64,000 nt of DNA from a virus. The stretch is from IMG/VR virus record IMGVR_UViG_3300032087_006189, one strand, 5' to 3'. The position numbers and the translations under genes were made by a program. How positions within the stretch are numbered: the stretch's first letter is position 1; every line of letters starts with the position of its first letter. This document shows positions 50,796 to 63,984 of this stretch, in pieces. Below the pieces are notes generated by a model. That model had not been told where the DNA came from and did not search any database. It worked only from the letters and a program-made list of their open reading frames with translations.

Positions 50796-51031
50796 TACGT
50801 CAAGGCCGCGGACAGCAGGGGCAGGAACTCGGCAGCAAAGGCCTCGGAGTGCAGTCTTCCCAATTCTATCGTACGGCGTTGGAGTTGTCGAGTGCCGGTC
50901 CTGCCCTCAAGCACTACCAGTAGCAGCTCTTTTTCTCGCAAAAGACGGGCTTCTTCTTTGCGCAAGAGGGCATCGACCTGCGCTCCCAAAGACGCGACCA
51001 TAGAGGCATACGGGCCTGCTGCTTCAGCCAT
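50795..51031 (-). CDS. Hypothetical coiled-coil protein
   Basis: One-base stop/start overlaps on both sides. Confidence 0.55.
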   Translation of the reverse strand: MAEAAGPYASMVASLGAQVDALLRKEEARLLREKELLLVVLEGRTGTRQLQRRTIELGRLHSEAFAAEFLPLLSAALT

Positions 51032-51861
51032 CAGAACGCATCCATGTAGTCTTTGTACTTTTTGGCAATCCGGTTTTTGACCTGAGAAACCTTCGACGGG
51101 CTCCAGCCAAGATTCTTTGCGATCTGACCCATGTTCTCGGTCTTTGGCTTCCCATTCTTGCCAAACAGATATTCGAAGACTGCCTGCTCCTCCAGGGTCA
51201 GGTCATAGGGCAGCATTTCGACGATTTCTCGGTGAACTGAGGAAGTCTCCTCAAATGGATTCACATCGAATCCGCCCTCACCGAGTGTAGGAATCGCAAA
51301 GATGTCGGGGCGCACCTCTTTTGCGAGCCGCTCGACCTTCTTGACGCTGATCTTCATTCGATCTGCGATCTCAATGGAGGTCGGATCTCTATTGAGCTCT
51401 TCGCGCAGGATGTCTTTGGTGCGCTGATACTCGCCGATCTTGTTCGCCTGAGACTCCACGATTCTTGTGAAGTTCTGGTGCTTCTTCACATACCGGTTCA
51501 GGCCACGGAGGTTGTTCGTGACATGAGTGGAAATCACCGCGCCCTTGGCGGGGTCGTACTTGCGCAGAGCCTTCACAGTCAGTGACCGCGCCTCTGCCTC
51601 GACCGTGGGGCGGTACATGCGCGGAGGCGTATGTCGGTTGACCTGAGACGTGATGACCGGATTGAGCGCAGTCAAGAGGGGCTGCAGCTTCTCAGGGTCC
51701 TCATTGGAAGTCTTCCACTGGCGCCACAGATCGATCTCCTTGGCCGCCTTGCCCGTGTACGGGCGAAACTTGCCAGTCTTGTAGTCCTTGGTCCCCCAGG
51801 TTTTCGGAAACTGGTAGGGGTCCTTGGCTGCAATTTTGAGGAGTCGATCCTTGACGGCCAT
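51031..51861 (-). CDS. Sigma70-family sigma factor, group 3 (FliA/SigF-like)
   Basis: Region 2 KALRKYDPAKGAVISTHV; region 3 EELNRDPTSIEIADRMKISVKKV; region 4 LTLEEQAVF...MGQIAKNLGWSPSKVSQVKNRIAKK. Confidence 0.88.
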   Translation of the reverse strand: MAVKDRLLKIAAKDPYQFPKTWGTKDYKTGKFRPYTGKAAKEIDLWRQWKTSNEDPEKLQPLLTALNPVITSQVNRHTPPRMYRPTVEAEARSLTVKALRKYDPAKGAVISTHVTNNLRGLNRYVKKHQNFTRIVESQANKIGEYQRTKDILREELNRDPTSIEIADRMKISVKKVERLAKEVRPDIFAIPTLGEGGFDVNPFEETSSVHREIVEMLPYDLTLEEQAVFEYLFGKNGKPKTENMGQIAKNLGWSPSKVSQVKNRIAKKYKDYMDAF

Positions 51862-61718: not shown

Positions 61719-61720
61719 AA
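61694..61720 (+). promoter_or_regulatory. Putative phage promoter CCAAA-N15-GTCATAA
   Basis: Copy 4 of the motif; ~18 nt before the ligase ATG. Confidence 0.55.
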
Positions 61721-61737
61721 CAACTCCGGAGGACAAC

Positions 61738-63036
61738 ATGGAATACCTGACACTCTATAGCACTGCCCGTACTGGAGCAGTGCGCGTTTGGGAAATCGCT
61801 GTCGATGAGGACCGGGTAATCACCCGCTTCGGGCAGCTCGATGGAAAGATGCAGGAAGTCGTGGACTACGGCACTGCGAAGAATGTCGGGCGGAGCAATG
61901 AGATCTCCGCCGAAGAAGATGCAGAAAACATGGCGCGTCGCATGGCGCGTCAGAAGATGTTGAAGGGCTACCGAAAGACCCTGGTTCAAGAATCTGACGG
62001 CTTCAATCCGTTCACGGAGGAGGGGCTGCCCAGTGAGCTGTCCTTCTACAAGCCACAGAACTCCATGAGCAAGAAGATGGAGAAGCTGGTTGAAGCGGAA
62101 GAGGCGTGGGCGCTCCGTAAGTACGATGGCGAAATGATGGTCATCGTGAAAGATCTGGACGGAATCGTAGACATCTACAGCCGGCGCATGCTCAGACATC
62201 ACCACAATGAGGAGGACACCGCTTGGCGAGTTCGATTCAACCACCTTGTGTGTGAGATCGAAAACAATGAGCGCATCCCTTCGGGGACTGTTCTTCTCGG
62301 CGAGATGGTTGCCTCTCCTCAGGAAGACAGCCGCTGGTATGTCGCGAAGGTCTTGAAGAGCCTGACTGACCGGGCAATAGATCTGCAGGAGGAGCACGGG
62401 CGTCTGCACTTCATCTGCTGGGATGTGGCCTGGTCAGGCGGAGAGCAGTTGATCGGCAAAGAATCTGTCGGTGTCCGATTGGATTACTGCAGGCTGTACG
62501 CAGGAACCTATCTCCGAGCCCCAGAGATGTTCTTCACCGGACATCCCTTCGACAGCGTCGACGCTCTCCGAGATCTTGCAGCTCGCAAGGGATGGGAAGG
62601 CTTCGTTGTGATCGATCCAGAGGCTACCTACGGAGACAAGGCGTTCAATCTGCGCGGCAAGCCTGACCGTCCCGCGGGTGCCTGTAAGTTGAAGCCGTGC
62701 TTCGAGGACGACTTCATCGCCTACTTCGATCCTGAAGATGGGCACGGCAAGTACGGCCGCGGCAAGTACACGGGAAAGCTCGGTGCGGTCAGCCTGTACC
62801 AGCACACCTCACTCGGCGGGCTCCAGTACATCTGCGAATGCGGCAACGGGTTCACGAAGGAGTTCATCGAGAACAACTCTGACCCCTCGGACTGGCCGAA
62901 GGTGATCGAAGTCAAGTACGAAAGCCGGACGTACAAGGATGCCGATGGGCACGGTACGAACGCACTTCAGTTTCCGCGATTTGTCCGCGTTCGCGAGGAC
63001 AAGGACCCGGACGAGTGCATCAACCCGGAGCTGTGA
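61738..63036 (+). CDS. ATP-dependent DNA ligase with N-terminal WGR-like domain
   Basis: GGAGG RBS, ATG 61738; KYDG, YSR, LLGEM, WD, EGFVV, KLKP, GNGF, FPRF; N-terminal VWEI...VITRFGQLDG. Confidence 0.93.
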   Translation: MEYLTLYSTARTGAVRVWEIAVDEDRVITRFGQLDGKMQEVVDYGTAKNVGRSNEISAEEDAENMARRMARQKMLKGYRKTLVQESDGFNPFTEEGLPSELSFYKPQNSMSKKMEKLVEAEEAWALRKYDGEMMVIVKDLDGIVDIYSRRMLRHHHNEEDTAWRVRFNHLVCEIENNERIPSGTVLLGEMVASPQEDSRWYVAKVLKSLTDRAIDLQEEHGRLHFICWDVAWSGGEQLIGKESVGVRLDYCRLYAGTYLRAPEMFFTGHPFDSVDALRDLAARKGWEGFVVIDPEATYGDKAFNLRGKPDRPAGACKLKPCFEDDFIAYFDPEDGHGKYGRGKYTGKLGAVSLYQHTSLGGLQYICECGNGFTKEFIENNSDPSDWPKVIEVKYESRTYKDADGHGTNALQFPRFVRVREDKDPDECINPEL

Positions 63037-63038
63037 GT

Positions 63039-63067
63039 AAGGGGGCCTTTCGGGGCCCCCTTCTTTT
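63039..63067. terminator. UUCG-loop terminator between convergent genes
   Basis: aagggggcct-ttcg-gggccccctt-ctttt. Confidence 0.8.
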
Positions 63068-63443
63068 AGCCCCCAAAGATGAAAGCTTCCTTCGGGTGCC
63101 CCGCTTCTTCCTTCGCGGCCTCTGCGGCCTTGAACTCGATCTCCCGGAGTTCGGCCTGCTGTGCGCGCTCTTCTTCGGCCTGGGCACGGATGGTATCGAT
63201 CTCCTGTGACCGGGCGTCGATTGCCTCATCTGTGAGGACATCGCCGTCCACCAGCAGGGAGCGGATGGACGCAAGCGTGGTGTCGTGTGACTCCACCGCC
63301 TGTCCTATCACGGCGTCGTTGTCGAACAGACGACGGACTTCCATGATGAGAAGATCAATCCCTTCAGACTGAATCTTCTCCATCGTAGCGATTCTTTGCT
63401 CGAGCTCTTCTACTCTGGCTTCGAGTCTTTCAGTACGGGTCAT
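63066..63443 (-). CDS. Hypothetical acidic coiled-coil protein
   Basis: TGATG coupling; 125 aa. Confidence 0.7.
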   Translation of the reverse strand: MTRTERLEARVEELEQRIATMEKIQSEGIDLLIMEVRRLFDNDAVIGQAVESHDTTLASIRSLLVDGDVLTDEAIDARSQEIDTIRAQAEEERAQQAELREIEFKAAEAAKEEAGHPKEAFIFGG

Positions 63444-63709
63444 CAGTCAATTTCCTCGCTAAGAATGGTACGGACTTCCTTCTCCATCTCGGCAACGCCG
63501 TCCTCCAGTTCCTCTACAATCTCCTCGATGAGATCGGTCGAAACTGGTGCGCCTTCGCACGAGATCTGGGCCAAAGGCTCAGGAACCCCATCACGAGGCA
63601 AGAACCGCGTGCGGAGAATCTGAGCAAGGGTAGACTGCACTGCAGCCCGCCCCTTCAGCTCCTTCACCTCTGTAATCACGGACCCCACAGTCTTCGATGC
63701 TGCTGGCAT
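63443..63709 (-). CDS. Hypothetical protein
   Basis: AAGGAG RBS before ATG 63709 (MPAASK). Confidence 0.65.
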   Translation of the reverse strand: MPAASKTVGSVITEVKELKGRAAVQSTLAQILRTRFLPRDGVPEPLAQISCEGAPVSTDLIEEIVEELEDGVAEMEKEVRTILSEEID

Positions 63710-63735
63710 GAAAAAACTCCTTTTTTCTGCCATAA
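63709..63735 (+). promoter_or_regulatory. Putative phage promoter TGAAA-N15-GCCATAA
   Basis: Copy 5 of the motif; immediately upstream of the candidate ncRNA. Confidence 0.55.
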
Positions 63736-63742
63736 CACTATC

Positions 63743-63984
63743 GTGAAGAAACTGAGAAGTCTCCGGAGAAATCGAGGAAGTACTCACCGCACCCAGGGCG
63801 TACTGGACTGTCCGGGAAAGCTGGGTGTGCTTCTTTTGTTAAGTAATGCCTACCGACGTTTCCGCATGGCTGACAGGGACAGTCTAATGCTGTCCTTAAT
63901 GTCTTCGGGTGAAAAGCCGGCACCGAGACCGGCAATCCCGAGAGTCCTTCCTTTCCTACCCTTGAGATTAGGTCTATTCTTCAC
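63743..63984 (+). ncRNA. Candidate structured ncRNA (~242 nt), family not recognised
   Basis: Terminal stem GTGAAGAA/TTCTTCAC, nested long-range helices and three internal hairpins; starts ~8 nt after the promoter motif. Confidence 0.55.

Follow-up and report, generated by a model that had tools for sequence, protein, structure and literature searches.

A small, structured RNA of about 95 nt is probably encoded by an independently transcribed gene of large uncultured freshwater phages, at position 63743 to about 63839 on the + strand of the DNA analysed here. This DNA, termed the window, is 64,000 nt in length and corresponds to bases 9132–73131 of a 78.5 kb viral record; sequence past the window end was also examined. 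The limits of the RNA are defined by conservation and covariation, and the 3′ end (63839) is approximate. A first-pass annotation of the window had proposed a structured non-coding RNA of about 242 nt directly behind a phage promoter motif. Covariation bears this out for the first ∼95 nt and does not do so for the rest of the 242 nt.

As judged from related phages, the RNA is a new and compact phage small-RNA family that has good comparative support and was previously undescribed. The clade of phages that carries it has genomes of about 165–200 kb. To our knowledge, lytic-type phages have yielded few small RNAs, and hardly any of these has comparative support. The RNA sequence is far more conserved than the proteins encoded around it, and it is present in uncultured phages that apparently carry their own sigma factor. 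A covariance model of the RNA could serve for the annotation of metagenomes and metatranscriptomes.

Gene context

Three minus-strand genes, in the order 183-aa open reading frame (ORF), p88 and p125, converge on an ATP-dependent DNA ligase gene found on the + strand. The 183-aa ORF runs from 64401 to 63850 (window 63850–64401, extending past the window end; L002:2982–3533). The p88 gene (63443..63709, 88 aa) has an AAGGAG ribosome binding site (RBS), and its leader is antisense to the RNA. Downstream of it is p125 (63066–63443, 125 aa). Between the convergent ligase and p125 genes there is a GC-rich hairpin (63037–63062) flanked on either side by U/A tracts; this hairpin looks like a bidirectional terminator. 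The 242 nt feature described by the first-pass annotation is intergenic at 63743–63849, and the remaining half lies opposite the final 45 codons (139–183) of the 183-aa ORF, in antisense.

Residues 17–101 of the 183-aa ORF match phrog_7595 (E = 3e-30). This module of ∼100 aa is free-standing in hundreds of IMG/VR phages and is also embedded in multi-module proteins of 531 and 555 aa in relatives (L083:1279–2874 + and L084:60–1727 +). Eighty IMG/VR homologues of the ORF end at the position aligned to residue ∼118, and a homologue search with the 65-residue tail (residues 119–183) found none. The codon score of the tail is weak, 0.14 vs ∼0.45 for the neighbouring genes, but is still the best of the six frames. 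With no homologue and a weak codon score, this extension may represent a recently acquired module or read-through. It starts right behind a K-G-A-A motif. The tail and the C-termini of the relatives' upstream genes share a G-L-G/basic flavour, but the match has an E-value of 2.2.

The p88 protein is represented by 14 protein clusters. Its model is a confidently predicted prefoldin-like helical hairpin with a beta tip (pLDDT 85) in which the Cys residue is invariant; comparison of the model with the PDB revealed no match at E ≤ 0.001 and gave no functional hint. The p125 protein is a coiled coil with a conserved terminal HPKEAF[IV]FGG. The p88/p125 pair always accompanies the RNA.

Conservation and distribution

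Relatives were gathered via p88, via exact core patterns in metagenomes and viral contigs, and via the p88 protein clusters with their contigs, the last of which yielded the more divergent members. Nucleotide similarity to the relatives spans the ligase, p125 and p88 (64–69% identity), reaches about position 63837 and then ends. The segment 63743–63829 (∼87 nt) is nearly invariant and displays three substitutions among the first three phages (alignment A1), the flanks of which are ∼67–69% identical. A comparison of 13 lineages shows a handful of variable columns in the block, as against differences at about one position in three in the coding flanks; the flanking genes of these near-invariant lineages are only 60–80% identical, and the adjacent proteins have 54–93% identity. 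Ten metagenome loci repeat this pattern of a conserved block with diverged flanks. In every contig fetched among the 13 close lineages, the RNA is directly upstream of p88 and on the opposite strand, and the gene on the other side of the RNA differs in almost every lineage. Six more contigs of the same phage are identical over 1.85 kb and thus add no variation.

A 14th lineage, L146, has a distant member of the family in a 199 kb phage record that is 95% complete, and the core hairpin is kept. The L146 homologue of p88 aligns at 24% identity and was detected with E = 4e-6 when that one genome was searched. A p125-like gene is nearby, and a 199-aa gene separates the RNA from the p88/p125 homologues. 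The RNA core of L146 is within a 420 nt gene-free gap (L146:2734–3152, +), and more helices are predicted behind it (195 nt, z −1.6). This lineage may make a longer RNA.

Covariance model R1 detects exactly one copy of the RNA in each of four phage records. Nothing similar to the RNA region is present in 80 phages that share only the phrog_7595 module, and no cultured relatives of the RNA element, p88 or p125 were found. A wider query of 1.1 kb matched only the phrog_7595 module, in Roseobacter, Lentibacter and Synechococcus phages, and the ligase gene has only ∼30% identity to distant ligases. The comparative case comprises 14 lineages only, 10 of which are very similar. Constraint acting on both strands, or recombination among phages that infect the same cell, could account for part of the extreme conservation.

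Secondary structure and covariation

RNAalifold, applied to 13 distinct sequences, predicts three helices on the + strand. P1 (4 bp, 63743–46/63784–87) closes a purine-rich region of 37 nt, together forming an element at 63743..63787. P2 (9 bp, 63788–96/63821–29) contains the first arm of the structure described in the first-pass annotation (63789–96/63821–28), and this arm is conserved and covaries in relatives. P3 (5 bp, 63803–07/63811–15) has a 3 nt loop. Between P2 and P3 there is an internal loop formed by GGCGUA (63797–802) and GAAAG (63816–20), and the long hairpin as a whole encompasses 63788..63829. The 37 nt region inside P1 holds invariant GAAAC, CUCCGGAG and AGUA sequences; it is mostly invariant in the 13 lineages and largely deleted in L146.

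The three helices vary in different ways. P1 displays compensatory changes from U-A to C-G in two lineages and from G-C to A-U in one. Seven of the nine P2 pairs have double changes when L146 is included, and P3 varies by C/U changes alone, which keep G.U or G-C pairs on the + strand. The GAAAG loop strand is kept in 14 of 14 lineages, GGCGUA has one change (GGACGUA) in two lineages, and the CGUA/GAAA pattern is invariant in all 14. L146 differs from the others at five P2 positions that are changed on both sides, with the internal loops and P3 identical. The unpaired GGCGUA/GAAAG nucleotides are as conserved as the stems, or more so. Such conservation of unpaired nucleotides usually implies a specific macromolecular partner.

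The MAFFT alignment of the 13 lineages (A4) has 99.1% of cells paired and compensatory double changes in five of 18 pairs, and one paired position takes four different Watson-Crick pairs. None of 500 shuffles was as good, and sliding of the partners reduced pairing to 30–43%. With L146 added (alignment A5), double changes are found in 10 of the 18 pairs, 98.8% of cells are paired and none of 500 shuffles matches this, although A5 was fitted to the covariance model and is thereby biased in favour of the structure. When the strands are compared, 99.1% of cells are paired on the + strand vs 88.9% on the minus strand. G.U pairs account for 24 cells and cluster at two positions where C/U is the only variation; on the minus strand such pairs would turn into A.C mismatches, and the wobble pattern thus shows that the + strand is the folded one. 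On the minus strand, P3 is broken in nine of the 13 lineages. The unit of ∼98 nt taken by itself shows no excess stability relative to shuffles (z −0.65), and support for the RNA comes from the comparative data. By these data, P1, P2 and P3 are maintained by compensatory changes and the element is a structured non-coding RNA.

Candidate promoter, sigma factor and predicted transcript ends

A sigma-28-like promoter motif, TGAAA-N15-GCCATAA, is present at 63709..63735 (+) and overlaps the RBS and start codon of p88. Motifs of this class are exclusively on the + strand in the 78 kb record, each time ahead of a + strand unit. Relatives keep the motif class at three orthologous sites, i.e. before the ligase gene, before a small + strand gene and before the RNA. 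All 13 lineages in which the RNA adjoins p88 share the −10-like sequence [GC]N[CT]ATAAC. The distance from the motif end to the start of the conserved block and of P1 is 8 nt, which is the spacing expected of a start site, and the motif thus places a predicted transcription start at about 63743. The first-pass annotation had put the 5′ end of the RNA at the same position, 8 nt past GCCATAA, and this boundary is conserved in the relatives.

The phage has a sigma-70-family gene (window 51031–51861). Region 3 of the encoded protein scores above the Pfam threshold, and the best NCBIfam match is to FliA/WhiG, at a sub-threshold score. It is plausible that this phage sigma factor reads the motif.

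At the other end of the RNA, the U-rich tract CUUCUUUUGU (63830..63839, +) was flagged as a terminator-like site and is probably the point of intrinsic termination. A U-rich tract is found behind the hairpin in most lineages. It is weak in L084 and L100, and nothing terminator-like directly follows the hairpin in L146.

The ligase leader (61720–61740, +) has the sequence C[CT][CT]CGGAGG directly behind its promoter motif, and this sequence is also present in L083, L084, L100, L101 and L102. It resembles the invariant CUCCGGAG of the RNA. The shared motif may be an operator, a pairing site or mere Shine-Dalgarno context.

Proposed function

The RNA is tentatively proposed to be a trans-acting ligand for a conserved protein or RNA partner, with a regulatory or sequestering role in the early/middle phase. 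A surface for protein or RNA recognition is favoured because the stems covary while the internal loop, the closing pairs of P3 and much of the 37 nt region inside P1 stay fixed. The invariant asymmetric internal loop, together with P3, would form the recognition surface, and the purine-rich 5′ region would provide a second contact. By binding, the RNA would regulate or sequester the partner in the early/middle phase. A cis-antisense effect on the late p88 leader may coexist with this role, the RNA being perfectly antisense to that leader. The internal loop presumably reads like a bulged-G/loop-E motif, i.e. xGUA opposite GAA.

A bolder form of the proposal is rather doubtful. Perhaps the RNA is the founding member of a new phage RNA class, in which the loop and the apical hairpin dock a conserved host or phage protein. 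The partner would be, for example, a component of translation, transcription or defence, and the RNA would act as a decoy or as an RNP subunit for host takeover. If this were true, the RNA would have stayed almost the same over a divergence that took the surrounding proteins down to 24% identity. For either form of the proposal, the identity of the partner could reveal a new route by which phages control the host or their own late genes.

Alternative explanations

The main rival to a trans-acting ligand is a cis-antisense role, which we regard as unlikely. The RNA would regulate the late p88/p125 pair in the manner of lambda OOP, by pairing with the minus-strand mRNA leader. This would trigger RNase III cleavage or alter access to the p88 RBS. 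Opposing transcription would also be disturbed by the promoter itself, given its overlap with the RBS and start codon of p88. The RNA is upstream of and antisense to p88 in all 13 close lineages, despite the differing gene on its other side, and p88/p125 homologues are still nearby in the distant L146. There is no minus-strand terminator between the 183-aa ORF and p88, and read-through mRNA should therefore contain the complement of the RNA. In addition, several relatives have UUUCUCC in the minus-strand leader, and this sequence can pair with the Shine-Dalgarno sequence of p88. However, antisense pairing is automatic and requires neither a near-invariant sequence nor conserved internal loops, and antisense control RNAs usually diverge fast. 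The RNA itself does not overlap the p88 RBS, and the 199-aa gene that intervenes in L146 leaves the RNA of that lineage not antisense to the p88 leader.

It is less likely still that the RNA is a trans-acting small RNA that base-pairs with phage or host mRNAs, with the purine-rich 5′ region as seed and the hairpin and U-tail as an Hfq-type terminator module. The layout of promoter, unstructured conserved region and terminator hairpin is consistent with such an RNA. The repeated A-R-N triplets and the invariant CUCCGGAG could pair with Shine-Dalgarno regions, and C[CT][CT]CGGAGG is found in the ligase leader in six lineages; the palindrome of this leader, however, is lost in L100 and L102, where CUCCGGAG stays invariant. 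Across four phage genomes there is no conserved complementary site of at least 10 nt, and exact matches occur at chance frequency. Matches of 12 nt sit at non-homologous places, and apparently covarying sites are found only in non-homologous genes and on opposite strands. RNAduplex scans of the four phage genomes, which encompassed thousands of sites, revealed no outlier above a heavy background. Moreover, L146 lacks most of the 5′ region but retains the loops of the hairpin.

An improbable alternative is that the + strand RNA is incidental and that conservation reflects a structured p88 leader on the minus strand or a DNA-level site, such as an origin, a primer, a packaging site or an operator. 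The element is within the p88 leader, adjoins a replication gene (the ligase) and includes a perfect 10 bp palindrome, TCTCCGGAGA. Layouts of a promoter with a downstream element are known at phage origins (T4, T7). Against a minus-strand structure, pairing is 88.9% on that strand vs 99.1% on the + strand, and the minus-strand P3 is broken in most lineages, as described above. The compensatory changes point to a folded single strand and not to a site in duplex DNA; GC skew is flat, with no signal of an origin. The sequence CTCCGGAG is not promoter-specific, as it has six copies, several of them within genes.

The rod-shaped RNA of ∼242 nt (63743–63984) with a three-arm junction, which was the proposal of the first-pass annotation, is very improbable and is largely refuted by the comparisons. 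Every helix named in that proposal is indeed present at the positions given, and the RNAfold minimum free energy structure of 63743–63984 consists of the whole rod and the three arms (−86.9 kcal/mol). The stability of the span has a z-score of −2.83, with one of 200 dinucleotide shuffles as good, and the U-tract after the first arm is imperfect, such that some read-through is possible. But conservation covers about 95 nt only, with the first arm and the U-rich tract as its 3′ limit. The remainder (63850..63984, +), which supplies the rod with its 3′ strand and includes the second and third arms, is outside the conserved RNA, is antisense to the tail of the 183-aa ORF and has no counterpart in any relative. 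Covariation among homologues upholds P1–P3 and not the rod, whose 3′ half has no homologues.

The same 242 nt span in nine relatives has z-scores from −1.7 to +1.5 and is not comparably stable. The duplex of the 5′ 47 nt with the downstream flank has an energy of −31.2 kcal/mol, which is equalled or bettered by 59 of 394 random same-strand genome windows and is thus within the genome background. A conserved rod built from other sequence in relatives was also looked for, and above-background pairing between the 5′ region and the flank was found in one of four genomes only. Antisense of coding sequence rich in Lys, Arg and Gly is an easy pairing partner for the purine-rich 5′ region. Since the rod is non-conserved, the span in relatives is not comparably stable and the pairing is within background, the z-score of −2.83 reflects a lineage-specific coincidence that had been selected by visual inspection. 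Downstream of the hairpin in L083 (2850–2880), L088 and L090, the codons that specify KKEKSS, the basic C-terminus of the upstream protein, form an imperfect inverted repeat with the 5′ region of the RNA, which gives a short rod around the hairpin; this is not significant vs background (43/397).

It can practically be dismissed that the element encodes a small leaderless protein with GTG 63743 (+) as its start, or that it extends the N-terminus of p88 on the minus strand: both frames are open in this genome, but protein-level conservation of the + frame, which the first-pass annotation had named as evidence that would count against its RNA, was not found, in that the GTG is replaced by GCA or GCG in L102 and L106, L102 carries two frame-breaking 1 nt insertions, variable columns fall 10/15/8 on codon positions 1/2/3 without a third-position bias, the codon score of the + frame is negative, the downstream peptides are unrelated between lineages, and in L084 the minus-strand frame is not in register with p88.

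Known RNA families and host origin

ARAGORN predicts no tRNA or tmRNA genes in the whole window. An Rfam 15 scan of 1.5 kb revealed no match over the element at E ≤ 10, and a cmscan of 136 nt returned only the hairpin ribozyme (RF00173), with 14.1 bits vs a gathering score of 65 and E = 1.4. No Rfam family scores at the gathering threshold, 6S, tmRNA, RNase P, SRP, phi29 pRNA and known ribozymes included, and these searches agree with the first-pass annotation, which could not assign the feature to tRNA, tmRNA, RNase P or SRP. A 6S-like polymerase decoy was among the possible roles named there, alongside a sponge and a packaging RNA. The 6S-like architecture, a rod of ∼180 nt with a central bubble, is absent, and the conserved unit consists of a 4 bp closing helix and one hairpin.

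The hairpin ribozyme alignment (window 63749–63817, +) places AAACUGAGAAGUC-UCCGGAGAAA on the consensus of the loop-A/helix-3/loop-B strand. By eye, the resemblance of AAACNGNGAAG...CCNGAGAAA to the consensus is striking. The match is nevertheless attributed to chance. It is sub-threshold, and the required helices 3 and 4 conflict with P1, P2 and P3: the partner of helix 3 is taken by P3 and would cross P2. AGAAA is lost in L102. No complementary substrate strand was seen on the + strand.

A host-derived or att sequence was also considered and rejected. Among 185,579 species genomes, a 20-mer of the core has five matches in bacterial genomes, and these are without extended similarity (63–74 of 200 positions) and represent chance matches. 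No bacterial copy of the RNA was found.

Comparison with known systems

Two of the resemblances concern short motifs. In the bulged-G/loop-E (sarcin-ricin) consensus, AGUA is opposite GAA. In the phage RNA, P3 is bordered by CGUA on one strand and by GAA(A) on the opposite strand, oriented as in that motif, a likeness of sequence pattern alone; the RNA differs in that the first position is C and not A, and in that there is no GAGA tetraloop. The likeness to the hairpin ribozyme RF00173 is that of a partial consensus alignment alone (14.1 bits), and the RNA differs from it in that the ribozyme helices clash with P1–P3 and the substrate strand is absent.

At the level of function, the RNA can be compared with 6S RNA, with sponges of the CsrB/RsmZ type and with AsxR and AgvB, which are phage anti-sRNAs (PMC12197685). 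It resembles these in that unpaired nucleotides are conserved like the stems, as recognition by a partner would give. Unlike 6S RNA, it has no rod with a central bubble, and unlike CsrB/RsmZ-type sponges, it has no repeated GGA hairpins and no Rfam match.

Lambda OOP RNA (77 nt) and P22 sar RNA (68/69 nt) are phage cis-antisense small RNAs (PMC12197685). Similar to these, the RNA described here is short, has its own predicted promoter and has a putative end at a hairpin and U-tract. It also runs against the direction of a phage operon and would be complementary to a junction in the mRNA, a likeness of geometry only. There is no relationship in sequence or at the Rfam level. The new RNA differs further in having a sigma-28-like motif, in belonging to a large phage of apparently lytic type and not to a lambdoid phage, and in its invariant internal loop, and its conservation goes far beyond the need of an antisense RNA.
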